Positions 1 through 62,167 of a stretch of DNA of 64,000 nucleotides are shown one piece after another. Numbering within the stretch: the first letter of the stretch is position 1; each line of letters starts with the position of its first letter. The notes beneath the pieces were generated by a model. It was not told where the DNA came from and did not search any database. It was given only the letters and a program-made list of their open reading frames with translations. A program made the position numbers and the translations under genes. The stretch is taken from the NCBI GenBank assembly GCA_045589455.1, contig JAZNPC010000088.1, positions 35,587-99,586 on the forward strand, read 5' to 3'. This DNA is from Kiritimatiellia bacterium (GTDB lineage Bacteria > Verrucomicrobiota > Kiritimatiellia > RFP12 > UBA3636).

Positions 1-1
1 T

Positions 2-376
2 TTCCGACAAAATGAATTATCCCATTTGATGGAAAATGTAATATATAATGAGCTACGGCGTCGTGGTTATTCTGTTGATGTAGGTATTGTAGAAAAGGTA
101 AGCACAATAAATAACAAAAAGGCTCGCACGTACTACGAAATAGATTTTATAGCTACTCGAGCAAACGAAAAAATTTATATACAATCTGCATTTAACATCC
201 CTGATAATGAAAAGAGAGAGCAGGAGACTAATTCTTTGCGTCAAATAAATGATGGATTTCGTAAAATAGTAATTACAGGTGATGCTTATGAAAAAACATG
301 GCGTGATGAGAATGGCATTATCTTTATGGGTATAAAGGCATTTCTTTTAAACACAAAGTCTTTGGATGTGCTATAG
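2..376 (+). CDS. C-terminal fragment of an AAA-family ATPase (DUF4143-like C-terminal domain); the 5' end lies beyond the window
   Basis: Open frame runs to position 2 with no upstream stop. The ORF track starts at a TTG at position 26. The residues ...GFRKIVITGDAYEK resemble the C-terminal domain of COG1373-type ATPases. Confidence 0.45.
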   Translation, partial: FRQNELSHLMENVIYNELRRRGYSVDVGIVEKVSTINNKKARTYYEIDFIATRANEKIYIQSAFNIPDNEKREQETNSLRQINDGFRKIVITGDAYEKTWRDENGIIFMGIKAFLLNTKSLDVL

Positions 377-475
377 CTCTTGCTTGCAATAGACAAGACA
401 AAGCTCATTCCACTAGTATTTTTTCTGCGTCATGTCTCTGCGTCCTCCGCGTCATTTGCGTCCCTTGTGTCCCTT

Positions 476-715
476 ATTTCGCACTTATTGCTTTCGCCTA
501 ACACGGAGTACGGAGGACAAGGGAGAATTGTGCCAACAACCATTACAACTCCCCAGAATACTCTCCGTGTCTCCGAGCCTCTTTTTCCTCCGTGTTTCGC
601 CGAAGGCTCAAGCGAGAGCGATTAAATCGTTTCACTCGTTGCTTACGCCTAACACGGACACACATAGTGTGATTTTTACGGAGGACAAGGGAGAATTATG
701 CAAACAATCACCTTG
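476..715. repeat. Family A structured repeat, locus 1 (about 1.5 units; the second unit is interrupted by a ~20-bp insertion)
   Basis: The core ...ctccgtgtctccg...ccgtgtttcgccgaaggctcaagcgagagcgattaaatcgtttcactcgttgcttacgcctaacacgga... recurs at 26.9, 29.6-30.2, 31.6, 32.2 and 51.5 kb. Its ends are inverted: cctccgtgtt / aacacggagtacggagg. Confidence 0.8.
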
Positions 716-780
716 AGAGAACTACGAGGCTAAGTTTTCCCATAAATTTTGCACTTCTATCTTGTTTTTACGTTAGATTT

Positions 781-2064
781 ATGACATATTATCCACTATT
801 GAGAAAACACAACTTTGATTGGGATTTTATGAATAATTTTGACCAGATAATTTCAAGCATTGAAAAATATCTTTGGGGAAAGCTTTATTGCGAGAAAACC
901 AGTCTCTTTTACGATAGAATTTGTAAAGGAGACGACCGCTTTGCTGAGCTTCCCACACCAGAAGAAATTTCAAAGCAATTCCCCAATCCTTGCGGGTGGA
1001 GCACTGGCATGGAGGACTGCTCAATAAATGCTGGTCACATACTAGAAATTCTCTCCCTCCAACATACTGTTTCTTACGAAAATATTTCCACAAAAGCCGA
1101 ATGCGTAATCAAGGGGATACATTTATGCCAATCCGTGCATGGCAAGCTAGGATTCCTTGTTCGTGGTGTTTCCCCATTTGACAAAAAGAGCTGCTATTTC
1201 AATAGCTCACGCGATCAAATAACAATGGTTGTCGGAGGCTTATTTGACATCTACAATGGAGTACCAACCCTACCAGCCAATCAACAAGAGCAAATTAAGG
1301 AAATTCTATTCAACATTGCCACATATACAAAGCACACTGTAACAAAAGAAAACAATTATAGCTATCTAAGACTTGATGGAGGCAAAGCAGTTGTTTCTGA
1401 TTTATGGAATTGCGATGTACACGAAATGCTACGCCTCCCGATGATTTATGCAGTAGCAGGAGAAATCTGCAAATGCGAAGAGTTTTCTCTCCTTGCTTTG
1501 AGCTATATGGAAGAAGGATTAAAGGCATCTGAAGCATTCGATAAAGAAAAATACTTTTGGGATTTTCCTCTTGTGCAAATGCAGCTTTCTCTTCATATCC
1601 TTTTGCATTGCCCTACTCTCAAAGCATACCATAAGCGCATAGAAAAGCTTATGACGAATGTAGCATTTACAGCGAAGAGAGAATTTTTAAATGTATTAGA
1701 ACGCTGCGAAGCCTATACTGGCGATTGGAATGCGTATTGCAACAATTGGAGAACTTTACCTATGTATGTCACTCCAGCAACGATTGCCGAGAATCCGTAT
1801 AACACTGTCTTTGATGGCTATACCTATCTAAATCCTGCCTACAATAAGGATTTTGCAATTATTGTTGAGTATTTGCGTTCTATCGGTAATTATTTGGTAG
1901 CTACGATGCTTGCACCAGAAACAAGCCTTGACCAAGCAAACATAAATCGCCTTACAGGCTTTCTCTCTAAGCTTAATTTTTCAAAATGTACACACGCTGG
2001 TCCATTCTCGCTCTTACATGGTCTATTACTATTGTGTAAGAGCACACAAAAACAACAATCGTAA
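781..2064 (+). CDS. Hypothetical protein (427 aa)
   Basis: Long ORF with a coding-like composition. I recognise no confident family. Confidence 0.55.
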   Translation: MTYYPLLRKHNFDWDFMNNFDQIISSIEKYLWGKLYCEKTSLFYDRICKGDDRFAELPTPEEISKQFPNPCGWSTGMEDCSINAGHILEILSLQHTVSYENISTKAECVIKGIHLCQSVHGKLGFLVRGVSPFDKKSCYFNSSRDQITMVVGGLFDIYNGVPTLPANQQEQIKEILFNIATYTKHTVTKENNYSYLRLDGGKAVVSDLWNCDVHEMLRLPMIYAVAGEICKCEEFSLLALSYMEEGLKASEAFDKEKYFWDFPLVQMQLSLHILLHCPTLKAYHKRIEKLMTNVAFTAKREFLNVLERCEAYTGDWNAYCNNWRTLPMYVTPATIAENPYNTVFDGYTYLNPAYNKDFAIIVEYLRSIGNYLVATMLAPETSLDQANINRLTGFLSKLNFSKCTHAGPFSLLHGLLLLCKSTQKQQS

Positions 2065-2106
2065 AACTATTTTGCCCGCAGCTTAAGCATGCGGGCAAAA
2101 AGATGG
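1976..2106. repeat. 131-bp direct repeat, copy 1 (covers the 3' end of the 427-aa ORF and a hairpin)
   Basis: Near-identical to 3585-3715: atttttcaaaatgtacacacgctggtccattctcgctcttacatgg...ttttgcccgca.ttaag.atgcgggcaaaaa.atgg. Confidence 0.85.
2075..2097. terminator. GC hairpin (gcccgcagcttaagcatgcgggc) between convergent genes, flanked by a T-run and an A-run; possible bidirectional terminator
   Basis: Perfect 7-bp stem with a 9-nt loop, preceded by tttt and followed by aaaaa. There is no U-run after the hairpin on either strand, so it is not a canonical terminator. Confidence 0.3.
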
Positions 2107-2140
2107 CAGATAACCCCTGTTCCTATACAATGCACCACTT

Positions 2141-2212
2141 TTGAGGGGCATGGCGCATCCATTCCCTTAATAGCCCTGTGCTTTTAAGGGAATAGTGCAA
2201 TTTTAAGGGGAT
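2141..2212. promoter_or_regulatory. Cluster of four T(T/G)AGGG(G/A)(A/C)AT motifs immediately 3' of fic
   Basis: The motif occurs as ttgaggggcat, attcccttaa (inverted), ttttaagggaat and ttttaaggggat within 70 bp. Confidence 0.4.
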
Positions 2213-2215
2213 TTA

Positions 2216-3262
2216 TCACTTGAGCCTGAAATAGGTGGTATTTTTGCCGTTGCCCTCACGCACAAGCTCCCCCTCGGCAACGAGCTTCCGAAGTGCGCCT
2301 TCTACCGAGCTGATACTGAGGGACGGACAAAGCTCCATGACGTCCTGCTTCTTGAAGCGACCGACCTTATTCATCGTGGCGCGTCTCACCATTTCAAGAG
2401 AGGAAAGCTTGGTTTCCACAAGTGCAAAGCGGTCTTCAAAATCACGGTACGCGGAAAGGATTGTACCAAGCAGATATTTGATGAATGGTACGGTATCCGC
2501 TTCTCCCTCGTGCCAGCGTTGCTGCGACTGCCCCAGGGCATCGTAATACAGATCTTTGTTCTTTGCAATCTTGGCTTCCAAGGAGATATACTTCCCAACG
2601 TAGAATCCGTTTCGGTAAAGGAGGAGCATGGTGAGCAGACGGCTCATTCTGCCGTTGCCATCATTGAACGGATGGATGCAAAGAAAATCGTGTATAAAGG
2701 TAGGAATGGCAATGAGAGGCTCAAGCTCCATATTGCCGATCACACGGTTATATTCGTTACAAATGGCTTCAAGTGCCTCTGGTGTCTCAAAGGGGTCGAG
2801 AGGTGTAAACAGCGTTTCAGTATGTCCGTCGGGATAGGTTGCGCTGATATAATTCTGTACGCTCTTGGTTCTGCCCGCCACGGGATTGTTCATATGGCTG
2901 TAGAGGATCTTGTGAAGATGAAGGATATAGTTCGGTGTCAATGGGATGGCATCAAAGCTTTCGTGAATGATATTCAAAACGTCTCGGTACCCGGCAATCT
3001 CCTGCTCATCGCGGTTTCTCGGTGTGGTCTTCTCACCCATCAGCTGACGAATACGGGTGCTCGTGGTCACGATGCCCTCAATGGCGTTGGACGCTTCGGT
3101 GCTTTGTACCTTTGCAATCTCAACAAGCTTTTCAAGCTCATCAGGGCGTTGCTTCAAATATAATTCTTGTTTTCCGGCTTCCTTGTAAATTGCGGCAATC
3201 AAGCCGAGCAACTCGGAATCCCATTTGTTTTCACTGATTTTCGTGTAATTAAAGGTTCTCAT
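2216..3262 (-). CDS. fic: Fic family protein (AMPylation / Fido domain) with a C-terminal winged-helix domain
   Basis: Canonical HPFNDGNGRMSRLL Fic motif. The start was chosen at the internal ATG because it is preceded by GGAGGTGATAAAATG, a strong Shine-Dalgarno sequence. The ORF-track start at 3301 is probably too far upstream. Confidence 0.85.
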   Translation of the reverse strand: MRTFNYTKISENKWDSELLGLIAAIYKEAGKQELYLKQRPDELEKLVEIAKVQSTEASNAIEGIVTTSTRIRQLMGEKTTPRNRDEQEIAGYRDVLNIIHESFDAIPLTPNYILHLHKILYSHMNNPVAGRTKSVQNYISATYPDGHTETLFTPLDPFETPEALEAICNEYNRVIGNMELEPLIAIPTFIHDFLCIHPFNDGNGRMSRLLTMLLLYRNGFYVGKYISLEAKIAKNKDLYYDALGQSQQRWHEGEADTVPFIKYLLGTILSAYRDFEDRFALVETKLSSLEMVRRATMNKVGRFKKQDVMELCPSLSISSVEGALRKLVAEGELVREGNGKNTTYFRLK

Positions 3263-3279
3263 TTTATCACCTCCAAACA

Positions 3280-3425
3280 ATTCCCTTAAATTATAGCACA
3301 AATCAAGGGGATCGTCAACATCTCAAGGGAACATTCCCTTATTATTTTACTCAAATTAAGGGAATTTATTCATTATTGAGGGAATAATACGATAGTATCA
3401 TATTTTAGCGTTAAGGGGAATTCTC
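3280..3425. promoter_or_regulatory. Array of six or more TTAAGGG(G/A)AT-type motifs in the fic upstream region, including the palindrome gggaacattccc
   Basis: Copies are attcccttaaatt, caaggggat, tcaagggaacattccctta, aattaagggaattt, attgagggaat and gttaaggggaattc. Together with the downstream cluster, about 10 copies lie within 1.3 kb. Confidence 0.45.
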
Positions 3426-3584
3426 TACAAAGGACAATGGGGACAGAACAGACAAACGGCAAGGCTGCCCCTGCCGTCTGTGGTATAAGGTTGTTTATTG
3501 CCGTTCCAGTTCGGTGAAGACCTCAATGGCAATCCGCATCCCAAGCCGACACCGGTCGCTTCATAAGCCTGTTCTCAAGAATAG

Positions 3585-3715
3585 ATTTTTCAAAATGTAC
3601 ACACGCTGGTCCATTCTCGCTCTTACATGGTCTATTACTATTGTGTAAGAGCTCACAAAAACAACAATCGTAAAACTATTTTGCCCGCAAATTAAGTATG
3701 CGGGCAAAAAAATGG
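3585..3715. repeat. 131-bp direct repeat, copy 2; its last 3 nt overlap the CCA end of tRNA-Pro
   Basis: See copy 1. This copy carries the relic 3' end of an ORF, although no gene lies upstream of it. Confidence 0.85.
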
Positions 3716-3789
3716 TCGGAGAGGCGGGATTCGAACCCACGACAGCCAGTTCCCAAAACTGGTGCGCTACCAGACTGCGCTACTCTCCG
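3713..3789 (-). tRNA. tRNA-Pro (anticodon TGG)
   Basis: The reverse complement is CGGAGAGTAGCGCAGTCTGGTAGCGCACCAGTTTTGGGAACTGGCTGTCGTGGGTTCGAATCCCGCCTCTCCGACCA. It has a 7-bp acceptor stem, a TTTGGGA anticodon loop, a GTTCGAATC T-loop and an encoded CCA. Confidence 0.9.
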
Positions 3790-3958
3790 ACGTACTTTCT
3801 AAACTTGTTGTTTAAAAATATGTGCATAATGATATCGCATTTTGAAACCAAAATCAAGCACAAAATTTAAAATTTTTATTTTTTTAACTTAAATGCGATA
3901 AAATCCACTCTAGATATTGGTTGTTGTATTATATATGGATTTCGACAAATGCAATGTT

Positions 3959-4993
3959 TTATAGCAAAATATCCCTTAATTGTGTTTGAAGTTCCTCTAA
4001 AGATGGCAATCCTAATCTATAAGTTGATATTCCTAACGGCTTATCAAAATCTGATAAAGAATATTCTGCAACTATATCATTTCGGGATTTACACAAAAGT
4101 ATTCCTATTGTTTTGCTATCTATCTCTGTTTTTACTTGCCTATCAATGGCTGTCATATAAAAACTTAATTGTCCTAAATCTTTTGGGTGAAATTTCCCTG
4201 TTTTTAATTCTATAACAATATAACGATGTAATACCACATGGTAAAAAAGAAGATCTATTTCAAACTCATCTCCACCAACCTTGAGTCGCCACCCCTTGCC
4301 CACATACGAAAACCCAGCACCAAGCTCTACCATAAACTGAGCAACTCTATCTACAAGCAATGTTCTTAGTCTATTTTCTGTTATGTTTCCGCTTGTAGGA
4401 AGAAAACCTAAATCATATTCTCCCCTTAATGCTTGATTCGCCATATCTAAATCCATAGGAGGCATAACATTTTTAAAATTATTTATTGCTTTACCTTGCT
4501 GTTTTGCTGCACAAAGTCCTATTTGATGCACCAAGACATTTCGAGACCACCCATTCTCTATGGATAATGCCGCGTAAGCTAGTCGATCTCCTCGCGATTT
4601 TAAATTCTCTAATAAGGCTATGTGATGATACCAAGGTAATTGTGCAAGTGGTGCTTGCACAATTTCATTCCGAGTCCAAGTCTCAGCAAAGCTACGCATA
4701 TATTTTAAATTGCGTGTCGACCAGCCACTCATATCAGGGAACACTTTTTTCAAATCGAATGACATTCGCTCTACAACCTTTGTACCCCACCCTTCTAAAT
4801 TCTGTTTCTCAATGATATCATTACCGATATCCCAATACAGCAATGTTAATTCAGAATTAACTAACATGCACGCTTTTATACGAGCAGATTGTATTCGTTT
4901 TTTGATTGAACAAATCCAAATATCGTACTCATCAGTTTTTAAAATTTCTTGAACAGAATTTTTATTAGTTTTTTTCATGCAACTCTCACACAT
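3959..4993 (-). CDS. YhcG / DUF1016-family predicted nuclease (PD-(D/E)xK restriction-endonuclease-like fold)
   Basis: Similar over its length to DUF1016 proteins (...LPWYHHIALL...GFSYVGKGWRLKVGGDEFEIDLLFYH...). A GAGGA Shine-Dalgarno precedes the ATG. Confidence 0.6.
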   Translation of the reverse strand: MCESCMKKTNKNSVQEILKTDEYDIWICSIKKRIQSARIKACMLVNSELTLLYWDIGNDIIEKQNLEGWGTKVVERMSFDLKKVFPDMSGWSTRNLKYMRSFAETWTRNEIVQAPLAQLPWYHHIALLENLKSRGDRLAYAALSIENGWSRNVLVHQIGLCAAKQQGKAINNFKNVMPPMDLDMANQALRGEYDLGFLPTSGNITENRLRTLLVDRVAQFMVELGAGFSYVGKGWRLKVGGDEFEIDLLFYHVVLHRYIVIELKTGKFHPKDLGQLSFYMTAIDRQVKTEIDSKTIGILLCKSRNDIVAEYSLSDFDKPLGISTYRLGLPSLEELQTQLRDILL

Positions 4994-5174
4994 TTATTCA
5001 TCCTCTATAAGCAAAACTAACTTACCATTTTAAGTAATCTACCTCATATTATATCATTTATTAAATAATAATCAAACAAATAAATTAAATAATAATTTAT
5101 TCTAGACGCATCTAAGTTATCTACACAACTAGAGTTCTAAATGTTGATTGCTAATTATTGTATTGTTCCCATTA

Positions 5175-5352
5175 CTCTCCATGCTCTAATTACTTTGCAA
5201 GCATACACACTTGCGCTTGGAAGTTGCCTTTGCGACAACGAGAGCATAAGAATGTAACGACAAGCGATAGTGTTTTTGCCGTCGCAACCACCAAACAAGC
5301 CATCACAAGAGCCCTGCGCCCCTGCAACCCCAGCATCTCCCTGACCTCCGTA
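5175..5352. repeat. Family B structured repeat, copy 1 (divergent)
   Basis: Shares cacacttgcgcttggaagttgc...ccatcaca.gagcc.tgcgccc...tccctgacctccgtag with 23583-23878 and 49793-50045. An internal stem differs from the other copies in a compensatory way (gcgac/gtcgc here, attattgc/gcaataat there). Confidence 0.7.
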
Positions 5353-5411
5353 GTTTTTTTTAAAAACGTAGGAGATTGTGGCCCTTTTCGCGCTTTCATA
5401 TCACACAAGAT

Positions 5412-6740
5412 TTACTTGTGGAATTGCTTTATTGATGCTAGGGATAGGATTAGGGCGATAACGCCACCCATGATTGGTAAAAGCTTTGGCAATACTGGGA
5501 AAAGCGCTGAAGCAAGACCACATGCGCCACCAAGAACTACGGCAGAAAGCCAAAGCTTCTGGTTTATTTTACCTTTATTGTAGGCAAATAATGCAACCGC
5601 TAATGGGATTGCTATGCCAGGCGTATAGATGCTATATGATAAAAGCAATAGCTCAATTATTCCATAATCTAAAAATGCAAGGAGCATCGCTACTATACCT
5701 ATTACAAATACAGAAGTACGGATAGAGCGGACACTGCCACAACCAAGAATATCGCGATCTACAATTACAGCACAATTGATTAGGCATGTATTAGCAGATG
5801 AAAGCAAAACTGAAATTAATCCAAGCGAGAAAAGAAGCTTTATTGGTAAAGGAAGCAATGTACTAATGTGAATTATTGGGTTATCCACTGACTTTGGATA
5901 ATTTGCAGCATCCCATAATCCCATATATGTAATTACAACTCCAAACACCAAAAGCGAAATTGCAGCAAGCACAGTGGCAAGCTTTGCCACTTTAGATGAA
6001 CGTGCAATGAAGCTACGCGAGACTATATCGGGGCCCAAAAAGAATGCACCACCCGCTGCAAACAGCATTAGTGCGAGCTCTTGCCAGCCAAATTTTGCAT
6101 TTAACAATTCGACTTGTGGCAGCGTGGTTGGTGCTTGTGAAGGCACTGGGACACTGCCACAAACTAAAGCAAATGCTGCTGCAGAAAATGCGGCAGCAAT
6201 TATAAGGGTTTGCAGCTTATCTGTGCGAACCACGGAGAGCTGTCCACCACACATGGTATAACACACTGTTATTGCACCGGCAATAACAACACCCCACTCA
6301 CGTGAAAGCGATGAAAGAGAAAACAATTTTATAAATTCATATCCAATGTAAAATTGTGCCACGACAATTCCTATCCAAGCAATCCCTATTATTGTTGCCA
6401 CTACTCTCTTTGCTTTGGGAGAAACTAATTTTTCCGCAAGCTCTGGGAGAGAGCAAGGCTTGAAAACCGCAATGCGTGAGGTAAGAAATGCGGCTTGAAG
6501 CACTAAGCCTATTGCCCCACAAATAAGCCACCACATTGCTGGCCAACCAATTTTTGTGGCAGACTCTGCCACGCCAAGGGTTGCCGATGCACCAAGCATC
6601 GTAGCCAACAATGACGCATAGACACCCCAGACGCCTTGGTTGCGTCCAGCAACCACAAAATCAAGTGTGGTTGGTTTACGCATTAGATCACGGATACAAA
6701 TGAATCCAAGAATGGCGATGTAGATGAATAATAGTGTCAT
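5412..6740 (-). CDS. Sodium:solute symporter family transporter
   Basis: Multi-TM protein with the VAGRN motif near the N-terminus, which is typical of the SSF family. Confidence 0.6.
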   Translation of the reverse strand: MTLLFIYIAILGFICIRDLMRKPTTLDFVVAGRNQGVWGVYASLLATMLGASATLGVAESATKIGWPAMWWLICGAIGLVLQAAFLTSRIAVFKPCSLPELAEKLVSPKAKRVVATIIGIAWIGIVVAQFYIGYEFIKLFSLSSLSREWGVVIAGAITVCYTMCGGQLSVVRTDKLQTLIIAAAFSAAAFALVCGSVPVPSQAPTTLPQVELLNAKFGWQELALMLFAAGGAFFLGPDIVSRSFIARSSKVAKLATVLAAISLLVFGVVITYMGLWDAANYPKSVDNPIIHISTLLPLPIKLLFSLGLISVLLSSANTCLINCAVIVDRDILGCGSVRSIRTSVFVIGIVAMLLAFLDYGIIELLLLSYSIYTPGIAIPLAVALFAYNKGKINQKLWLSAVVLGGACGLASALFPVLPKLLPIMGGVIALILSLASIKQFHK

Positions 6741-6811
6741 GGTGATGAGGCTTGCGCCTAGGGCGCAAGGTACTGCAGCAATAATGCCGCAGCACGAAAC
6801 AATTTGTTGGT

Positions 6812-7678
6812 TTACTTGTTGTAGATAGCTGCAGCTTTGAAGGCTTCAAGGTCTGAGAAGGATGGGCCTTGAGCTGCTTGCTGTGCTGCAAGCTTGGTAG
6901 CTGCACGAGCAGCGGCTTGTTGCTCACGAGCTAAGGTTTCTTCGGCAATCCAGCTATCTATTAGCTTACGAGCAAGGGAATCCTTGCGAGGAAGCTCCGG
7001 CAAATTATCTATTGAGAAAAATTGTGCGTCTGTAAGCTCAGAATCAAGAAGAGAAATTTCACCATTAGCAGCCTCTGCTGTGAAGCCAAGCATTAAGCTA
7101 TTTGGATATGGCCAAATTTGGCTCCCAAAATATTTAAGACTCTTGAGCTTAAGACCGGTCTCTTCATAAGCCTCACGAATTGCGCACTCCTCAAGGCTCT
7201 CACCTAGCTCAACAAAGCCAGCGACAAGCCCATAAAATGTTCCTCTAAAATTCTTTGCACGAACAAGCAGTGCGCTCTTCTTGCGCTTAATCAAAATTAT
7301 TGCTGCTGGTGCAATGATTGTGTATTGAGGCTTACCGCATGAGCAGCAGCGCTTTCCTGAGAAGCCAGCTGGATCCATACGTCCCCCGCAGACTGGGCAA
7401 TGCTGGGAATTGAGATCCCATGCGACCTTTTCAGCTGCAGCAAGTGCTGGCTTATAAAGCTGCTCAGGAAGAAGCTCAAAGGCATCACGAACACCAACCA
7501 AAGAATCAAGCTTTTCTTCACAGCAAACTGCACGTGCTGGGATTCCATTAATTAAACCTAATCCAAAAACTATTTTGCCTGGAGCTGGTGCAACAGGACA
7601 ATACTCCTCACAAGGGAGCTCACCATTTGGCAAATATAATTTGCCATCACAAATAATATACCAATAAATCTTTTTCAT
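6812..7678 (-). CDS. nudC: NudC-like NUDIX hydrolase (NADH pyrophosphatase type) with a zinc ribbon
   Basis: CPVCGG...CCSCG zinc ribbon followed by the Nudix box GFVELGESLEECAIREAYEETG. It also has a C-terminal Ala/Gln-rich tail. Confidence 0.7.
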   Translation of the reverse strand: MKKIYWYIICDGKLYLPNGELPCEEYCPVAPAPGKIVFGLGLINGIPARAVCCEEKLDSLVGVRDAFELLPEQLYKPALAAAEKVAWDLNSQHCPVCGGRMDPAGFSGKRCCSCGKPQYTIIAPAAIILIKRKKSALLVRAKNFRGTFYGLVAGFVELGESLEECAIREAYEETGLKLKSLKYFGSQIWPYPNSLMLGFTAEAANGEISLLDSELTDAQFFSIDNLPELPRKDSLARKLIDSWIAEETLAREQQAAARAATKLAAQQAAQGPSFSDLEAFKAAAIYNK

Positions 7679-7818
7679 AGGCGCAAGATTGTAATAAAAT
7701 TAAGAAATTTTATCAACCATAGTTTTATCTTTAAAATAAACTCATTACGCCTAATACTTCAATAAAAAACATATAAAAACATTACTCATATAAATACGAT
7801 ATATGAGTTACCATGAAT

Positions 7819-8619
7819 TTATAAATTTTTCAAGGCCTTTGTTGTATCGTTTTTCTCAGGCAATTTACCATATATCCAACCACTAACACACTCAGGCAGT
7901 GTTCCCATAAACCATGACACAAAGCGCATCTGCCAAGGGAAGGCAATAATTCCTTTATTACGTATTATTCCACGATAAATCTTTTCTGCAGCCTTATCTG
8001 CCTCCATGAAAAATGGCATTGGACAAGTGTTGACATCTGTTATACGTGAGCGGACAAAGCCTGGGCAGATTACACTTACACCAATACCATCATTTGCAAG
8101 CATACCGCGCAAACCAGCACCCCACGCTTTTACACAAGATTTTGAAGCACTATAGGAAGGACATTGTGGAAGTCCATGATAACCAGCCATTGATGCTGTT
8201 ATTGCTATCTGCCCCTTGAATCCCGTAATCGGATTACGCTCTGCACGAGCAAGAAAACACTCAATTGCTGGAAGCACTGTATTTATCACACCACCTACAT
8301 TTATATCAAAGGTTCGAAAAACATTTTCACTAACATACTCTTCTCCTGTGGCCACTCCAGCATTAGCATAAACTAAATCTAATGGTTTTTCTTTATCACA
8401 AGCGGCAACCCACTCTGCCACAGCCACTCGATCTGTAACATTTAATTGTTTAATGGATACAGCTTTAGCTCCAAGTAATAGGCATTTTTCTTTTACAGCC
8501 TCTAATCGCTCTACATTTGTTCCACAAATAAATAGCTGTTCAACCCCCGTTGAAGAAAGCTTTAAGGCAACTGCTTCTCCTATACCACTTGAAGCTCCCG
8601 TAATTAAAACTGATTTCAT
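7819..8619 (-). CDS. Short-chain dehydrogenase/reductase (SDR) family oxidoreductase
   Basis: Cofactor-binding motif TGASSGIG and catalytic motif YSASKSCVK. Confidence 0.8.
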   Translation of the reverse strand: MKSVLITGASSGIGEAVALKLSSTGVEQLFICGTNVERLEAVKEKCLLLGAKAVSIKQLNVTDRVAVAEWVAACDKEKPLDLVYANAGVATGEEYVSENVFRTFDINVGGVINTVLPAIECFLARAERNPITGFKGQIAITASMAGYHGLPQCPSYSASKSCVKAWGAGLRGMLANDGIGVSVICPGFVRSRITDVNTCPMPFFMEADKAAEKIYRGIIRNKGIIAFPWQMRFVSWFMGTLPECVSGWIYGKLPEKNDTTKALKNL

Positions 8620-8714
8620 GTAAAGCCCTTTGTCTTGATATTGTTTTTTGAATAACCCACACAGCTATATAATTTGATACAAAAAGAGCGTGCAAATTTG
8701 CACGCTCATTCAAA

Positions 8715-8954
8715 TTATTGTGCTGGAGATGTTGGTGATTTGTGACGATAAATGATGCGTCCCTTTTCCAAATCATATGGAGACATCTCAAGGGTTACAA
8801 CATCACCTGTTGTAATCTTAATAAAGAATTTACGCATTTTACCAGAAATATGAGCCAAAACCTCATGTCCATTATCTAGACGCACTCTATACATAGTTGC
8901 AGGAAGAACCTTTACAACTGTACCTGTGACTTCAATTGAATCATCCTTTGCCAT
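8715..8954 (-). CDS. infA: Translation initiation factor IF-1
   Basis: [42 protein letters not shown]... closely matches IF-1. Confidence 0.9.
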
Positions 8955-9075
8955 AAAAAACTAATAGCTCCTTATCTAATTTTTATAAAAATCAATTTTA
9001 TTATATCATTTAGCCTTAAAAACACCAAGCGTTTTTTTGTTTTCAAAAGAATTTTCGAAAAATTAACTATTATAT

Positions 9076-23582: not shown

Positions 23583-23878
23583 TTCCTCGCTCCTCGTCTC
23601 AAAAGTCTTGGTGGGTCGTACACATTAGCGCTTGGAAGTTGCATTATTGCTTCGTCAGATTTCGCAATAATAAAGGCAACAACAAGCGGTAATGTGCGCA
23701 TTCGCGCCCCAACACCACACCCATCACACAAGCCCAGCGCCCTCCGCGTCCTTCCTGACCTCCGTAGCCTTGGAGTAGGAGGTTGCGTCCCATCGGCGTC
23801 ACGCTAGCTCGGCGTTCTCTGCGTCTCTGCGTGAGGCGTGAGCCTGCCAATTATTTGTTGGCTGTTGTTTGTTGGCTG
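23583..23878. repeat. Family B structured repeat, copy 2
   Basis: Shares ...gtacacattagcgcttggaagttgcattattgcttcg.cagatttcgcaataat.aaggcaacaacaagcggtaatgtgcgcattcgcgcccc... with 49793-50045, and continues to the tandem ctctgcgt units. Confidence 0.8.
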
Positions 23879-26885: not shown

Positions 26886-27050
26886 AATAATCCCAGCACC
26901 CCTCCGTGTCTCCGAGCCTCCAGAAAACCACACTACGTGTGCTCCGTGTTTCGCCGAAGGCTAGATGCTCAAGGAGGCAAAGGTTAGCACCTTGCCACCT
27001 TTCGCCCCAGCAACACCGGGCGACAGAGCCACCCTCAAATGGGATAAAGC
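26886..27050. repeat. Family A partial unit fused to a family D hairpin element
   Basis: ...ccctccgtgtctccgagcctccagaaaaccacactacgtgtgctccgtgtttcgccgaaggct followed by ...ggcaaaggttagcaccttgccacct.tcgccccagcaacaccgggcgacagagccaccctcaaatgggataaagc. Confidence 0.8.
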
Positions 27051-27555
27051 CTTCTGGAGATTCCTCTAATTCGTCATCAGGATACTCCACTTTAAATGCA
27101 AATACATCACCATTCGCATCCTTAGCAAATGCATATTGACCTTTAGCTTATGCATCAACTCTGTCACATAACTCTACCCTTGCATTTTTATAAATGCGGA
27201 TATAACTCATTAGGGCTGGTGAAGAGCATATTTGATATCATATTGCACGCCAAATTCAATTTAAATCTGAGGAAAAACACCCCAACACCGACACATTAAA
27301 ATAAACCCTCTTATTCAGTTGTTCGTAATTGATTGCTGTATTGTTTTTCATCAATAATTAATTTATAATATCTATCAAACAAGTGAACCTACCATCAAAA
27401 ATTATTAAAATAGACCACCTAGTAATTTTATGAAAATAATAACTGCAATGGACTTCTTTAAAGAGTGCATGACTTCTGTTGATGTTAGTAATGCAGTAAA
27501 AACTGGTCCTATTGCAAAAACAGTCTCATTATCATAAAGGACATTTTGTTATACC

Positions 27556-29612: not shown

Positions 29613-29649
29613 CCTTCCCATTCTCCTAATCTCCTAATCTCCCAATTAG

Positions 29650-30236
29650 CGCCACAGGCTTGAGCGGGAGCGTTTAAATCCCTTTCGTTCATTGCTTACG
29701 CTTAACACGGAGTACGGAGGACAAAGGAGAATTGTATTAGCAATCTTTCCAGCACCCCAGAACCCTCCCCGTGTCTCCGTTCTCCAGAAAACCACACTAC
29801 GTGTGCTCCGCGTTTCGCCGAAGGCCTGAGCGGGAGCGTTTAAATCGTTTCACTCATTGCTTTCGCTCAACACGGAGCACGGAGGACAAAGGAGAATTGT
29901 GCTAATCGTTGCACTCGTTGCCTACGCCTAGGAAAGGAGGGGAAGTGCAAGCAACAATAATCCTAGAACACTCTCCGTGTCTCCGTTCTCTTAATCCTCC
30001 GTGTTTCGCCGAAGGCTCAAGCGGGAGCGTTTAAATCACTTTCGTTCATTGCTTACGCTCAACACGGAGTACGGAGGACAAAGGAGAGTTGTGCTAGCAA
30101 CCATTATAATACCCCCAACAAACTCTCCGTGCCTCCGTTCTCTTTTATCTTCGCGTTTCGCCGAAGGCTCAAGCGAGAGCGATTAAATCATTTCACTTGT
30201 TGCTTACGCTTAACACGGAGGCTGGGGAGAACGGAG
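29650..30236. repeat. Family A structured repeat, tandem array of 4 degenerate units (152-191 bp period)
   Basis: Core starts (cgtgtttcgccgaagg) fall at about 29645 (truncated), 29812, 30003 and 30155. Each unit ends ...aacacggag.acggaggacaaaggagaattgtgcta.caa. Confidence 0.85.
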
Positions 30237-30291
30237 ACGCGGAGAGGTTTGGGAAGATATTGGAGAAAGGGGCTACAGCCCTTTGCGTGCT

Positions 30292-31565: not shown

Positions 31566-31685
31566 CTTCCGCCTAACACGGAGACGCAGAGGCGCGGAGA
31601 ATTGTGCAAGCAATCATTACAACTACCCCAGAACCTCTCCGTGTCTCCTTACCTCTTTATCCTCCGTGTTTCGCCGAAGGCAAGA
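31566..31685. repeat. Family A structured repeat, single unit
   Basis: gcctaacacggagacgcagaggcgcggagaattgtgcaagcaatcattacaactaccccagaacctctccgtgtctcc...cctccgtgtttcgccgaagg. Confidence 0.8.
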
Positions 31686-31810
31686 GCACTAGCGACCATC
31701 AGTTCTCTGCGTTCCTTTTTCGCACTTTTGAAGCGTGCTGGTGCACGCAAAGCGACTGGAAGTCGCTTCTCCATACTTTTCTAGCCCACGAATGTGATGC
31801 ACTATAATAA

Positions 31811-32194: not shown

Positions 32195-32345
32195 GCCTCC
32201 TAATCTCCAAAACTCCGGAAAGACACACTACGTGTGCTCCCAGAAGCGAAAGCAACCTTTCAATAGAGATTAAGTCGTTGGGTTTAAAGTTACTTTCGTT
32301 GCTTGAAGATTTGGAGATTAGGAGACACGGAGAGTACTGGTGGTA
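32195..32345. repeat. Divergent family A-like element bounded by 13-bp inverted repeats (cctaatctccaaa / tttggagattagg)
   Basis: Contains cacactacgtgtgctcc and gagacacggagagt, both shared with family A. The inverted repeats sit at 32203-32215 and 32300-32312. Confidence 0.6.
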
Positions 32346-40847: not shown

Positions 40848-41315
40848 CTAATTGACGATATTTTGTGGTGCCTGATTTGAAAGCCATTGAGGGATTGCTG
40901 ATCGTAGGATTGCAGGCTGAAAGCCTTGTGCTGCAAGCTCATCGAGGGGAGCCCAAAGAAACTCAATCCAACCTTCTTTACTTGGTACAGCTGGTTCACC
41001 CTCTAATCCTTCCCACTCTGCCACGTGCAATTCATAGCACAAATTGATTTCATCAATTCTATCCTCTCCCTCACCATAGCTAAACTCTGCCACGCCCAAA
41101 AAGCGCTTAACTTCTGCTTTAACACCAAGCTCCTCAACCAGCTCTCGAAGCACAGCCTCTGCACCAGTCTCTCCTGGATCAATATGCCCGCCCGGTAGAT
41201 AGCTTCGAGCCTTGCCTACTGGCTTACAAAGTAATATTTTTCCATTGTGGAGGATTATCCCTCTCGCAATAACCTCATGTGTTAATTCTTTTGTTTGCAT
41301 AAATTTATTCTCCAT
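40848..41315 (-). CDS. NUDIX hydrolase (155 aa)
   Basis: Nudix box GGHIDPGETGAEAVLRELVEELG. Confidence 0.8.
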   Translation of the reverse strand: MENKFMQTKELTHEVIARGIILHNGKILLCKPVGKARSYLPGGHIDPGETGAEAVLRELVEELGVKAEVKRFLGVAEFSYGEGEDRIDEINLCYELHVAEWEGLEGEPAVPSKEGWIEFLWAPLDELAAQGFQPAILRSAIPQWLSNQAPQNIVN

Positions 41316-41378: not shown

Positions 41379-42266
41379 CTAGTCGGGTTCAAGTGTTGAA
41401 TCGTCGCTTTCGTAATAATAGGAGTAATCAATGCCTTTCATGAACATTTCTCGGTCATTGATTTTATCGGTCAGAGCCGGCTCGAGAAGGGCTTTAAGTT
41501 CTGCACTGTCAACAACACTTTTCCGCATAGCTTCGAGGTAGGCGTTTTTATTGACCTTGCTCCAGTCGATACATCTTTTGAGTGTGCGTTTCAACATCAA
41601 ATCCAGCCAGATACGGGTGCTTCTGCCGTTGCCCTCCATAAATGGATGCGCCACATTCATTTCAACATACTTATTGATGATTTCCTCAAAGGTGGTTTCG
41701 GGCATATTTTCAATATTTGGCAGAATTGTGGAGAAATACAGAGCATTTGCAAATGTAAAGCCGCATTTACTGATGTTTTTATCTCGAATTTGTCCAGCAA
41801 AATCATATAGTCCGCCAAAGAGATAAGCATGAATCTGTTGCAGACATTTTACGGTGCCTGGTTCCAGACTGGCAAGCAGTCCGCTTTCAAAAAGAGCGTA
41901 GGCTTTGGTACGGCTCTTGCCATCAATGGTATCGTCACTATATGTAAACCACTTGATAAATTGAACCGCATAACGGCTAGGGATATGAGCAACCAATTGA
42001 ATCAAGTCCGCTTGCGACATACAATCCGTCAAATAACGCTTCCCATCTGAAGCCATAAGTTTCAGTTGGTTACAATTTGTAACCGACTGATTATTCGCCT
42101 TTTTAAGACGATTCTTTAACACCTTCCAATAATTTCGCGAGTCCTTACTTTCTGTAAGCACTCCCACTACATCTGTCACCGAAAATAACCATTGATTGGC
42201 GGAATCGTCCCATGCGGCCCGCACTTCTCGGTCATTAAAAAATCGGATAGAAACTTTTTGATTCAT
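41379..42266 (-). CDS. Fic/DOC family protein with an N-terminal Bro-N/RhuM-like putative DNA-binding domain
   Basis: [15 protein letters not shown] Fic motif. N-terminal [31 protein letters not shown] block. Confidence 0.8.
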
Positions 42267-42586: not shown

Positions 42587-43248
42587 CCCCTCTCTTTCAG
42601 AATAATCGCAGCTTTTTTTATTTTTTGCATCAAGTTCTGATTTCCTTGTTTAGCAAGTTCACGATAGACATCGCGTAACAAGGAAAGCACCTCTTCCGTT
42701 TGCTGTGCTCGGTATGATTTGCGAGCTTGGTACATTCGTTCCCGGATGCCTCCTTTTTCTGTGAAACTTTTTTCCAGTGACTTGATTTGACGGTCAAGCA
42801 AATAATTGGTCTGGTGAATCAGGGAAATCATCGTATTGCAGAAAAGCTCAGGATTATCAGCAGAAAAATAAGACTTATAGGTCTCATAAGTCCTATTCTT
42901 TTGTCTTGCAAGCTGGCGGATTTGCAAAGCCCGTGGGTCATCTTTTTCCCACAAAGGCAAATTGTGCGTCCGCAAATAATCGCGGTAGTCTTCCAATAAT
43001 TCTTCAAGACTGGCTCTGGCAACACCAACAAGCTTAATTTCTGTTCCGCTACTGATACCTGATGCCATGCTTCCTTCGATTATATTTTGCTTACCGCTTC
43101 TTGCCGCCTGTATCATTTGATCAATTGTCCGATCACCTTTTCTAAGAAAATTTTGACAAAAACTCTGCGTCGCATCAAAAATAATGACACTATTTTGATA
43201 CGATTCAAGTTCCTGATAATTTCCGTGTGGCAAGACAATTTCTGCCAT
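42583..43248 (-). CDS. Four-helix-bundle (23S rRNA intervening-sequence protein family) domain protein with a C-terminal extension
   Basis: ...QMIQAARSGKQNIIEGSMASG...VGVARASLEELLEDY... fits the Q..RSA.SI..NIAEG...IARGS..EL signature. Confidence 0.45.
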   Translation of the reverse strand: MAEIVLPHGNYQELESYQNSVIIFDATQSFCQNFLRKGDRTIDQMIQAARSGKQNIIEGSMASGISSGTEIKLVGVARASLEELLEDYRDYLRTHNLPLWEKDDPRALQIRQLARQKNRTYETYKSYFSADNPELFCNTMISLIHQTNYLLDRQIKSLEKSFTEKGGIRERMYQARKSYRAQQTEEVLSLLRDVYRELAKQGNQNLMQKIKKAAIILKERG

Positions 43249-43289: not shown

Positions 43290-43500
43290 TTCATTTCCCT
43301 CACTCATTTTCAGAGGTCCCTTCCTTTCAGAAAATTCGCATCTTCAGAAAGATAAGACTTATAGGTCTCATAAGTCCTATTCTTTTGTCTTGCAAGCTGG
43401 CGGATTTGCAAAGCCCGTGGGTCTTCTTTTTCCCACAAAGGCAAATTGTGCGTCCGCAAATAATCACGGTAGTCTTCCAATAATTCTTCTAGACAAAGAG
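43290..43500 (-). pseudogene. Internally deleted duplicate of the preceding four-helix-bundle gene
   Basis: 43345-43495 is ~97% identical to 42867-43030, and 43290-43340 resembles 42575-42620. It corresponds to ORF-track ORF 43310..43525. Confidence 0.7.
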
Positions 43501-49339: not shown

Positions 49340-49620
49340 AAAATTTCGCGTGCGCGTCAATATATTTTCACGCGCGCGCGAGATTTTTTGTGGTAGCGAG
49401 TATGGTGGGGATTGGCGTGCTGGGCACGCGAGTGCGCTCTATTTTGGCGCGAGTGCGCTCTCGCGCAGGAACAGGATTGGCAGGATTTTGCAGGATTGCT
49501 TGGGTGTGTGCATAGCGCACTACACTAGCGCTTGACGTTGGACATGGTCTTGCTCTCGTTGTCGCAAGGCCAACTTACAAGCGCTAGTGTGGGGGCAACC
49601 CATGTTACTTGCGTGATGCA
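49340..49620. other. GC-rich (~57% against a 40% background) repeat-laden non-coding island upstream of gyrB
   Basis: Contains (CG)n-type palindromes cgcgtgcgcg / cacgcgcgcgcg, the direct repeat gcgagtgcgctct x2, gcaggatt x2, and a long inverted repeat gcgcactacactagcgcttg...caagcgctagtgtggggg that resembles the family B core. Confidence 0.6.
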
Positions 49621-49792: not shown

Positions 49793-50045
49793 TTGCTCAA
49801 TAGCCTTGGTGGGTCGTACACATTAGCGCTTGGCAGTTGCATTATTGCTTCGCCAGATTTCGCAATAATTAAGGCAACAACAAGCGGTAATGTGCGCATT
49901 CGCGCCCCAACACCATACCCATCACACCAGCTCCGTGCCCTCCGCGTCCACTGCGTCTCTGCGTCCCTACGGCGTCACGTGCACCACGCTCGCTCTGCGT
50001 CTCTGCGTCTCTGCGTGGGGGTGAGCCGCCAGTTGTCTGTTGATT
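49793..50045. repeat. Family B structured repeat, copy 3
   Basis: Roughly 90% identical to copy 2 over the first ~150 bp, and ends in (ctctgcgt) x3. Confidence 0.8.
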
Positions 50046-51433: not shown

Positions 51434-51493
51434 CGCACCTAAGATGTATAAAATACCTCTTAGGTGCATGAAGCGAAGCACAGCTTCATTTTC
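51434..51493 (+). terminator. Two consecutive hairpins after the M16 peptidase gene; the second is followed by a T-run (rho-independent terminator)
   Basis: gcacctaag...cttaggtgc (9-bp stem) and then atgaagc-gaagcaca-gcttcat followed by tttct. A near-identical hairpin (tgaagcgaagcatagcttcatttt) sits at 52140-52165 next to the hydE stop. Confidence 0.55.
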
Positions 51494-51957
51494 TCCGTGC
51501 CTCCGTTCTCAGAAAAATCACACTACGTGTGCTCCGTGTTTCGCCGAAGGCTCAAGCGTCAGCGACAATCAGTGTGCGTGCTAACAAGCCATTTTATAAG
51601 ACTTATAAGTCCTATGAGTCTTATTAAAATATTGCGTAGCAATGCTTCATATTGCGTGGCACCTCTCCGTGTCTCCGTTTTCTTTATTCTCCGCGTTTCG
51701 CCGAAGGCTAAAGCGTCAGCGTTTCAATCGTTGCACTCATTGCTTTCGCTTAACACGGAGTACGGAGGACAAAGGAGAATTGTACTAGCAATTATTAACA
51801 ATAACCCCAGCATCCCTCCGCGTCTCCGTTCTCTGAAAAATCACACTACGTGTGCTCCGTGTTTCGCCGAAGGCTTGGAGTGCTCAAGGAGGCAAAGGGT
51901 TGCCACCTTGCCACCTCTCGCCCCAGCAACACCGGGCGGCAGAGCCACCCTCAAATT
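51492..51957. repeat. Family A structured repeats (about 2.5 units with a ~110-bp unrelated insert) fused to a family D hairpin element
   Basis: ctccgtgcctccgttctcagaaaaatcacactacgtgtgctccgtgtttcgccgaaggctcaagcg... occurs twice, followed by ...ggcaaagggttgccaccttgccacctctcgccccagcaacaccgggcggcagagccaccctcaaat. Confidence 0.8.
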
Positions 51958-52171
51958 AACTTTTTAACTGACAAACTATCAAACTATAAAACTGTAAAAC
52001 TATATAACTAAACAAGAATTAAATTAGTTTGCAAGTTGGCGAGTATGCGAGTATGCGAGTTTGATAGTTGGATTTTGAGGCGGCAGAGCCACCTTCTGGG
52101 AGGATGGAGCGCTCATAAATGAACATGAGAACATGAAGCAGCACATTCGTGCTATGAAGCGAAGCATAGCT

Positions 52172-61258: not shown

Positions 61259-62167
61259 TTATACCTGACCTGCAAGTTTAAAGAATAATGGACCAAGTAA
61301 AATTATGAAAACTGCAGGGAAAATGAATACCATCAATGGACCAAGTAGCTTTGTTGGTGCTTCGTTTGCTAGCTTCTCTGCACGCTCAAAACGACGCACA
61401 CGAATCTGATCTGATTGGATTCGAAGAATAGAACCAACAGCAACACCTAATTCATCCGCCTGTACCAAAGCATTGACTAGTGCACGCATATCTGGCAAAT
61501 CCACACGCTCAGACATTGCTCTTAATGCATTCTTTCTTGTGGTTCCCACTTGAATCTCACGAACCATACGAAGAAGCTCCTCACTAAGAGCATCTAATTT
61601 ATCTCGTTCTGTTGCTCTTTGTACTGCTGACATAAAATCAAGACCAGCCTCTACAGAAAGTGTTAGCAAATCGAGAACAAAAGGCATTGCTCTTAAGATT
61701 TGTTGTTGTCTTATTTTTACAGCAGAACGCAACCATATCACAGGATACATGTAAAAAAACACAACACCAAGGATAGTCAAAATTGGCAATAATCTAGAAA
61801 TAAATTCACTCACACCTCCAATTTGATAAAGGATCAAAATCCAAAGAGGTCCCAAGCAAACAGGGAAAACAACTTTAAGAGCTAAAATCTCCCAGCCTTC
61901 TAGAAGGCCTTCCATGCCCGCTGTCACAAGCATTTGGTCTGTCTTTTCCCTGAGTTTACTAAACCTAGGGCCTTGCATCAACCCTTTAACATTGGGAGTA
62001 AGCGGGAGTAATAATTTAAAAATTAAGGGGATACGACGCTCTTGCTTTCTTCCATCAGCGAGCGTTACATAGGTTATCTGTTTCGCTACTCCCATGGCAT
62101 ACCATGCGAATAACGTGACTGATGCCATCCAAAGGACAACACCAAACCATCCCAATACATTTGTCAT
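61259..62167 (-). CDS. Type II secretion system F-domain / TadB/TadC-like pilus assembly membrane protein
   Basis: GspF-like domain architecture with TM segments and a ~300-aa length. Confidence 0.5.
   Translation of the reverse strand: MTNVLGWFGVVLWMASVTLFAWYAMGVAKQITYVTLADGRKQERRIPLIFKLLLPLTPNVKGLMQGPRFSKLREKTDQMLVTAGMEGLLEGWEILALKVVFPVCLGPLWILILYQIGGVSEFISRLLPILTILGVVFFYMYPVIWLRSAVKIRQQQILRAMPFVLDLLTLSVEAGLDFMSAVQRATERDKLDALSEELLRMVREIQVGTTRKNALRAMSERVDLPDMRALVNALVQADELGVAVGSILRIQSDQIRVRRFERAEKLANEAPTKLLGPLMVFIFPAVFIILLGPLFFKLAGQV

Follow-up and report, generated by a model that had tools for sequence, protein, structure and literature searches.

The fic gene described here lies in a stretch of 64,000 nucleotides from a Kiritimatiellia bacterium of the gut (GenBank assembly GCA_045589455.1, contig JAZNPC010000088.1, positions 35,587 to 99,586 of the forward strand), which we call the window and number from its first letter. 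It is the only gene between two near-identical copies of a 131-bp direct repeat, of which copy 1 closes a gene for a 427-residue protein and copy 2 finishes with the CCA encoded in a tRNA-Pro gene, and it is flanked on both sides by copies of a decamer, TTAAGGGRAT. We propose, as the reading that we hold to be probable, that two independent features overlap at this locus: a fic cassette that regulates itself through operators of its own, and an inserted duplication of the neighbouring gene tail that is maintained by gene conversion. The fic gene and the sites around it are as follows.

2161–2212, minus strand: downstream half-sites including O3 (2184–2193 with 2161–2170, 13-bp gap), and a third half-site at 2203–2212 just past the stop codon
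2216–3262, minus strand: fic, encoding a class II Fic AMP-transferase with a C-terminal winged helix, 348 residues
3280–3318, minus strand: fic promoter and candidate operator O1 (half-sites 3303–3312 and 3280–3289, 13-bp gap)
3323–3365, minus strand: candidate operator O2 (half-sites 3356–3365 and 3332–3341, 14-bp gap), about 50 bp upstream
3378–3420, minus strand: distal weaker half-sites (3378–3387 and 3411–3420), outside the unit shared with other loci

The fic reading frame starts at 3262 with an ATG that a GGAGG ribosome-binding site precedes, so that the protein has 348 rather than 361 residues. Its translation holds an active site, H197-PFNDGNGRMSR-208, that fits HPFx(D/E)GN(G/K)RxxR, and an inhibitory motif N-terminal of the Fic core, S58-N-A-I-E62-G63, that fits (S/T)xxxE(G/N) and aligns with STESSNRLEG of Protein Data Bank (PDB) entry 8UQU, an entry matched over residues 20–344 (E 2e-74). 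The Pfam Fic model (E 7e-17; 62.5 bits, the cut-off being 24) and the PADLOC SoFic model for a single-gene defence system (E 2e-37) also match. Against the NCBIfam SoFic equivalog NF046030 the protein scores 60 bits, for a cut-off of 550, and it therefore shares the SoFic architecture without being a SoFic orthologue. PDB entry 7XUX, which we take from its 380-residue length, and not from any tool result, to be a structure of CccR, shows little sequence similarity, confined to the Fic core (E 1e-6). The full-length model from the single sequence was poor (predicted local distance difference test (pLDDT) score of 42) and the model of the C-terminal domain alone was used; there, residues 250–348 (pLDDT 86) adopt a helix–helix–helix plus β-hairpin topology, the top Foldseek matches of which are the winged helices of PerR, Fur, ArsR, MarR and TubR (root mean squared deviation of around 1.8 Å over 64 residues, with E-values of only about 6e-3). 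The model thus agrees with the winged-helix-like tail that the original prediction, made from the letters of the window, had assigned to this protein.

Exact copies of TTAAGGGRAT number six in the window against 0.47 expected, a count reached in none of 100 shuffles, and five of the six lie within 2161–3365. With one or two mismatches allowed, 10 sites fall between 2161 and 3420, on both sides of fic and including the palindrome AAGGGAACATTCCCTT at 3325–3340, much as had been predicted. The accompanying remark, that the decamer had not been noticed elsewhere in the window, agrees with five of the exact copies; the sixth is TTAAGGGGAT at 62023–62032, which lies inside an open reading frame (ORF; 61259–62167) and is most likely a chance match. 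The decamers are 10-bp half-sites set out as inverted pairs, with three pairs alike in geometry and gaps of 13–14 bp. The fic promoter, with a −35 element TTGACG (3318–3313), a 17-nt spacer, an extended TG and a −10 box TATAAT ending at 3290, is the best in 1900–4000 and matches 11 of 12 consensus positions; one half-site of O1 sits in the promoter spacer (3303–3312) and the other over the predicted transcription start (3280–3289), so that the −10 box is bracketed. Upstream, a further half-site at 3323–3332 abuts one half of O2, and together they make up the palindrome.

The promoter pairs recur at many other fic loci. A strict O1 is present in 60 of 74 non-identical metagenome loci, and the consensus of 71 non-identical gut-metagenome fic loci reads TTGact-tTTCCCTTA-tttT.Tg.TAt.A-TTTAAGGGAA across the promoter, in which O1 appears as tTTCCCTTA-N13-TTAAGGGAA after TTGact, and attCCCTtAat...tAAGGgaat across O2; the half-sites are near-invariant and the spacers vary freely. 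The pair past the stop codon is rarer, with an O3-like arrangement detected by strict pattern in one relative (L014) and 6 of 70 metagenome loci, and by eye, with degenerate half-sites, in a few more. The distal half-sites show no conservation in the 71-locus consensus and are both degenerate in a related locus, L013. In more distant Fic homologues the promoter still contains inverted repeats, the half-sites of which differ in sequence: TTCTCCTAA-N13-TTAGGCGAA around the −10 box, with the same N13 spacing, at 63% identity to Fic (L109); and, with wider gaps, GATTAAACAT-N23-ATGTTTAATC at 44% (L106) and TCAGTATCAT-N30-ATGATACTGA at 39% (L108). As fic is the only gene found consistently with the sites, and the half-sites change as the protein diverges, Fic itself is the likely binder. 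We infer Fic as the binder and repression as the effect from the sites, their overlap with the promoter, their conservation and the winged-helix fold, and on these grounds of sequence the decamers are likely to be inverted-repeat operators of fic bound by its own product. Of the two roles that the original prediction had offered for the motifs, that of autoregulatory operators gains from the overlap with the core promoter, from conservation across loci and from the published relatives CccR and SoFic, both of which bind their own promoters. The other, replication iterons, fits poorly with inverted pairs around a promoter and with a setting that has neither a replication gene nor an origin context. 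More broadly, a role for the decamers as replicon iterons, as arm-type recombinase sites or as targets of a host regulator unrelated to Fic is very improbable: their many copies in both orientations, with spacings of 19–24 bp on both sides of the gene, would suit it, but neither a rep gene nor a recombinase was found, fic is the sole constant gene across the more than 70 unrelated contexts in which the sites accompany it, the half-sites differ in more distant homologues, and the published relatives point to self-binding.

The extent of the travelling unit can be read from its relatives. Fic homologues number in the thousands; the best 120 of these are 85–95% identical, and among them one is named from a Clostridiales metagenome-assembled genome (MAG) and many lie on contigs of 1.2–2 kb. 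Only about 2161–3378 of the window is shared with more than 80 other fic loci, which lie in unrelated contexts (TIR, Macro, DarTG, integrase, Schlafen-like helicase and others), and GC content is 47–52% in fic against about 38–43% in its flanks. This interval is, as far as sequence comparison can say, a compact fic cassette that has spread horizontally with its own cis-regulatory sites. A general association of such cassettes with tRNA genes was considered and dropped, as a tRNA lies within 3 kb at only 4 of 60 other fic loci, about the level of chance. A tRNA-Pro is near fic at two of the other loci (L021 and L032), in other orientations and without an integrase.

Several further fic genes were encountered. 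In the window itself, an unrelated second fic gene (41379–42266, minus strand; Bro-N plus Fic, with matches to an NmFic-type NCBIfam equivalog and to PADLOC PDC-S04) adjoins a NUDIX gene, has an ORF at 40848–41315 (minus strand) listed alongside it and carries no TTAAGGGRAT sites. At two loci (L015 and L016), a 295-residue HTH_17 plus Fic gene lies directly upstream of a 348-residue Fic like the one studied here; its product has the length of the second Fic of the window and another N-terminal domain. A fic gene whose protein is 93% identical occurs in an island (L104, 5237–9505, and L105) with the order tyrosine integrase, fic, DarT and Macro, the last two a DarTG-type pair. The closest Fic by bit score, P0001, was set aside: it is an internally duplicated 440-residue homologue with only 74% nucleotide identity, encoded at 88–1410 of L103, where part of the gene is duplicated within itself and two overlapping alignment segments answer to window 2299–3318 and 2220–2585.

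The duplication in which the cassette is embedded involves the following features.

781–2064, plus strand: gene for a 427-residue protein with no assigned function; its 3′ end is the duplicated sequence
1932–1975, plus strand: outer block of tail copy 1, functional coding sequence, diverged from 3541–3584
1976–2106, plus strand: direct repeat copy 1, comprising the last 29 codons and stop codon of the 427-residue ORF, a hairpin and ATGG
2070–2100, no strand assigned: hairpin in copy 1, TTTTGCCCGCA-N9-TGCGGGCAAAA, with an 11-bp stem; its counterpart in copy 2 is at 3679–3709
2107–2160, no strand assigned: spacer X, 54 bp between copy 1 and the fic unit, common to the related loci L001 and L013 only
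3541–3584, plus strand: outer block of the relic tail (copy 2), diverged and in frame with copy 2, with a stop codon before it and no ORF body
3585–3715, plus strand: direct repeat copy 2, comprising the relic ORF tail and hairpin and ending on the tRNA CCA
3713–3789, minus strand: tRNA-Pro(UGG) by ARAGORN, placed at 3716–3789 by Rfam; intact, with encoded CCA

Pairwise alignment of the two copies gives 126 identities in 131 positions, with five mismatches. The description in the original prediction of copy 1 as the real end of the gene with its hairpin, and of copy 2 as a tail without a body that stops at the tRNA-Pro 3′ end, is accurate: because ARAGORN starts the tRNA at 3713 and Rfam at 3716, the final TGG of copy 2 (3713–3715) is the encoded CCA. 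Beyond this TGG the copies part, copy 1 continuing as CAGATAACCCC and copy 2 as TCGGAGAGGCGG, and their alignment contains no duplicated tRNA sequence other than the CCA. On the other side, homology begins at about 1932 and 3541, that is, 44 nt beyond the left edge of the repeat, diverged yet still in frame (SQADTGRFISLFSRIDF in the relic against DQANINRLTGFLSKLNF in the live gene and QADINRFISFLSNLDF in the L002 orthologue). The duplicated unit is therefore around 175 bp of gene tail and hairpin and not 131 bp. A gapped tblastn alignment that carried the relic further upstream, to about 3392, was discarded because direct comparison gave no significant alignment there. The sequence occurs only twice in the 64-kb window, an exact 26-mer from it has no match in the metagenome contigs and, of the 105 fetched loci, only the related L001 and L013 have its hairpin; in the available data, then, it is not the high-copy dispersed repeat that, by the original prediction, would have been fatal to its case. 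The hairpin folds with z-scores of −3.1 to −4.8 (−3.7 for the copy at 2070–2100) and is probably a bidirectional terminator, although it has no canonical U-tail and a simple terminator scan made no call at it.

The history of the duplication can be followed in two related loci. L001, the closest relative (98% nucleotide identity), has the same junction of copy 1, X and fic on a contig that ends inside fic, and in L013 the arrangement is complete and its junctions identical (tail, X, fic, segment Y, relic and tRNA-Pro). Codons 1–356 of the 427-residue gene are missing from L013, in which the upstream DNA, GmrSD genes and intergenic sequence included, is homologous to what lies 5′ of the gene where it is intact, in L018 and L002; this synteny argues for an orthologous locus that later suffered a deletion, and for the insertion as a single ancestral event. 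Both GmrSD-type genes of L013 lie upstream of the gene remnant (2988–7153), and a segment of around 430 bp with a 91-residue ORF (7296–7729) interrupts its otherwise L018-like intergenic region. Spacer X and segment Y adjoin fic at none of the other loci compared and hence are not part of the mobile unit.

A four-way comparison of copies 1 and 2 from the window with copies 1 and 2 from L013 separates the two parts of the duplication. In the outer 44 columns, 14 sites differ between copies while each copy agrees across genomes, and no site is concerted; in the inner 131 bp, no site has this orthologous pattern, and at five sites the copies agree within a genome and the genomes differ (Fisher test on 14/0 against 0/5, calculated by hand, P of about 1e-4). 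This distribution is a signature of gene conversion and indicates that the inner block was converted independently in each lineage after the window and L013 had split. Three differences private to copy 2 of L013 fall just within the block at its left end (columns 152–166), suggesting that the homogenised tract there starts slightly further in. Homogenisation of the inner 131 bp with the live tail accounts for the sharp, near-identical repeat, which would thus be a conversion tract and not the footprint of an attachment (att) core.

An att origin was the geometry first read into the locus, with the repeats as attL and attR of a minimal or decayed element that targets tRNA-Pro. Spelled out, the element would recognise the 3′ end of the tRNA and be moved in trans by a tyrosine integrase encoded elsewhere. 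We regard this as improbable. Direct repeats do surround foreign DNA of higher GC content beside a tRNA, ATGG, which complements CCA, closes both copies, and a 93%-identical fic sits directly beside a tyrosine integrase in the integrase–fic–DarT–Macro island mentioned above. The repeat is, however, the tail of the neighbouring gene, and what it duplicates of the tRNA is limited to the CCA; its left edge behaves as a conversion boundary, perhaps slightly shifted in L013, with diverged homology running 44 bp past it; the cassette common to other loci ends at about 2161 and 3378, inside the repeats and not at them; and tRNA genes are no more frequent near the other fic loci than expected by chance. 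Nor is an integrase at hand, as had already been noted: no recombinase was found by Pfam, PADLOC or NCBIfam among the ORFs of 1–8619, all of which, apart from the 427-residue gene, had matches.

The 427-residue gene itself raises another possibility. It is 95% identical at the nucleotide level to its orthologues in three loci (L002, L018 and L019) that have the order GmrSD, 427-residue gene, HAD hydrolase, SSF and NUDIX, no fic, tRNA or YhcG, and a differing gene end without a hairpin. Window 703–2037 is 95.4% identical to L002 7923–9257, against 76% and 83% for the flanking SSF and NUDIX genes, and homology starts abruptly at 703 with L002 and at 744 with L001; the gene thus being far closer to L002 than its flanks are, an exchange of alleles between lineages is likely here and may be recent. 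One could then see in 3541–3715 the remnant of a resident allele, and in the gene (703 to about 1975) and fic a block imported later, homology-anchored recombination having replaced most of the gene, with gene conversion patching it afterwards. The relic, 76% identical to L002 over 3541–3646 and so near the level of the flanking genes, fits this idea, as does DNA 5′ of the gene that differs in every relative. Yet L002-type alleles end without hairpin or ATGG and lead into the HAD gene and not into fic, so that the imported block would already have needed the hairpin–ATGG–fic junction, and L013 joins L002-type upstream synteny to the fic and tRNA side, as vertical descent of the whole locus would have it. 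On balance we consider a resident-allele origin unlikely, although somewhat in keeping with the identities.

The reading that we prefer, of a self-regulated cassette within a converted tail duplication, would run as follows. A Fic dimer would bind the inverted half-sites through its winged helices and repress its own promoter, with O1 bracketing the −10 box, O2 lying upstream and O3, past the stop codon, acting as an auxiliary site. The cassette, flanked by the short segments X and Y, would have entered between the 427-residue gene and the tRNA-Pro 3′ end in an ancestor common to the window, L001 and L013, and the gene tail with its hairpin, about 175 bp in all, would have been duplicated with the insertion. 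What was then left on the tRNA side would be a dead relic, of which the outer 44 bp would have drifted, and gene conversion would time and again have made the inner 131 bp match the live tail. Such a duplication would arise most simply if a circular DNA with a homologous tail had integrated in the Campbell manner. A bolder version, in which a Fic dimer or higher oligomer loops the 1.1-kb gene through the three pairs and the 131-bp repeats form a RecA-dependent switch, seems to us a long shot. If true, looping would make of fic a self-insulated, context-independent defence or toxin cassette that any genome could receive without harm, and its spread across phyla with no recombinase of its own would then be explained; deletion between the repeats would remove fic and restore the order of gene, hairpin and tRNA-Pro.

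Several points weigh against the preferred reading. A host regulator could use the decamer sites in place of Fic, and the role of O3 is uncertain because it is present in a minority of loci. Both tail copies are available from two lineages only, and the test for concerted evolution rests on five sites. The exact end of copy 1 at ATGG, which complements CCA, is not accounted for by simple homologous recombination and hints that the tRNA end was recognised in the process. Finally, no relative was found in which the gene leads straight into tRNA-Pro, so that the pre-insertion state is reconstructed and not observed. The original prediction had looked to relatives lacking fic for an ancestral site with one repeat copy and no insert, and no such site was found among the loci of 427-residue gene orthologues or the relatives anchored on SSF: the insert is present in L001 and L013; L002, L018 and L019 are arranged differently and have no tRNA; and L101 and L102, SSF-anchored contigs from independent samples, end before the site, exactly at 5221, where the variable region between the SSF and YhcG genes has its edge.

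Two further features complete the immediate surroundings.

3452–3481, minus strand: hairpin followed by a T-rich run, −22.3 kcal/mol, z-score −3.4, terminator-like
3959–4993, minus strand: gene for a YhcG/DUF1016 PD-(D/E)XK nuclease (Pfam; PADLOC PDC-S02, E 9e-125), outside the repeats and beyond the tRNA

The first of these looks like a terminator that shields fic from transcription arriving from the tRNA side. The position of the second bears on the suggestion that a duplicative recombination had captured fic together with the YhcG-like gene, which holds for fic, enclosed by the two tail copies, and not for YhcG, which lies outside them. Past YhcG, Pfam places an SSF transporter gene and then a NUDIX gene, and Rfam, run on 1–9000, returned only the tRNA-Pro. 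Exact-protein look-ups of the 427-residue protein and of Fic returned nothing on record. The former matches no Pfam or NCBIfam model and occurs in Kiritimatiellae, Lentisphaerae and other PVC-group bacteria, with orthologues of 96% and 93% identity in MAGs labelled Verrucomicrobia and Kiritimatiellae. PADLOC matches around the locus comprise PDC-S01 (the ATPase fragment at 26–376), SoFic (fic) and PDC-S02 (YhcG), and the site looks like a variable region with homologues of defence genes. The ATPase fragment (plus strand) is the C-terminal part of a PDC-S01-type protein, aligned to profile positions 314–409 of 412, and is probably cut by the edge of the window and not truncated in the genome.

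Repeats of other kinds are present in the window. Dispersed units of around 45–130 bp, GC-richer than their surroundings, intergenic and clustered, occupy 432–716, 26901–27055, 29630–30250, 31596–31695, 32196–32240 and 51491–51971 (examples are CTCCGTGTTTCGCCGAAGGC... and ...AACACGGAGTACGGAGGACAAGGGAGAATTGTGC); one cluster lies just 5′ of the 427-residue gene, and L001 carries one copy of the unit at the equivalent place. A 55-bp repeat with 82% identity is found at 5221–5275 and 49522–49576, and two direct-repeat pairs at 42856–43010 and 43340–43494 (155 nt, 96% identity, 484 bp apart) and at 23598–23751 and 49796–49949 (154 nt, 94% identity, 26 kb apart).

The locus is instructive but fairly ordinary, and neither of the two points made here overturns current understanding. 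For a Fic family very widespread in gut metagenomes, the comparison supplies a footprint of a candidate operator, TTCCCTTAA-N13-TTAAGGGAA around the −10 box with a second pair upstream; the self-repression model of CccR and SoFic would thereby extend to thousands of uncharacterised genes, with a binding site ready for experiments. The repeat, for its part, illustrates a pitfall, in that a live gene tail and its relic, when gene conversion keeps them alike, can mimic the repeats of site-specific integration beside a tRNA, which matters for automated callers of islands and att sites.

Among known systems, the duplicated tail recalls prophages e14 and phage 21 in icd of Escherichia coli, which, having entered a gene at its 3′ end, leave one tail that completes the gene and a displaced pseudo-tail. 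Here too there are two copies of a gene tail, one completing the gene and one displaced to the far end of the insert; e14 and phage 21, however, encode an integrase and use a short, defined core site, whereas at this locus no recombinase was found and the block of identity appears to be kept by gene conversion. Islands beside tRNA genes and defence islands likewise carry cargo of foreign GC content next to a tRNA and variable content between conserved flanks, and the neighbours of fic match defence or candidate-defence models, with GmrSD in the relatives; the present locus departs from them in having no integrase that we could find and no duplicated 3′ segment of the tRNA. The cassette itself most resembles two self-binding Fic proteins. 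CccR of Yersinia pseudotuberculosis represses its own promoter as a dimer through 10-bp inverted half-sites, AGATAATCAT-N26-ATGATAATCT (PMC9755527), and dimeric SoFic of Shewanella oneidensis binds its own promoter within 100 bp upstream of its start codon and AMPylates EF-Tu (2026 preprint, bioRxiv 10.64898/2026.07.09.737422). With CccR the present protein shares a Fic domain followed by a C-terminal helix-turn-helix and an inverted-repeat operator in its own promoter; it differs in half-site and spacing (N26 in CccR against N13 here), in that CccR is an effector secreted by a type VI secretion system, and in that three candidate operator pairs are found here, one of them past the stop codon. 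With SoFic it shares the order of N-terminal helix, Fic domain and winged helix, whereas the target of SoFic is EF-Tu and the present Fic is not its orthologue. Judged from sequence and by analogy, the cassette would thus resemble the CccR and SoFic self-repressors, and what appears new in it is the half-site, the shorter spacing and the extra downstream pair.

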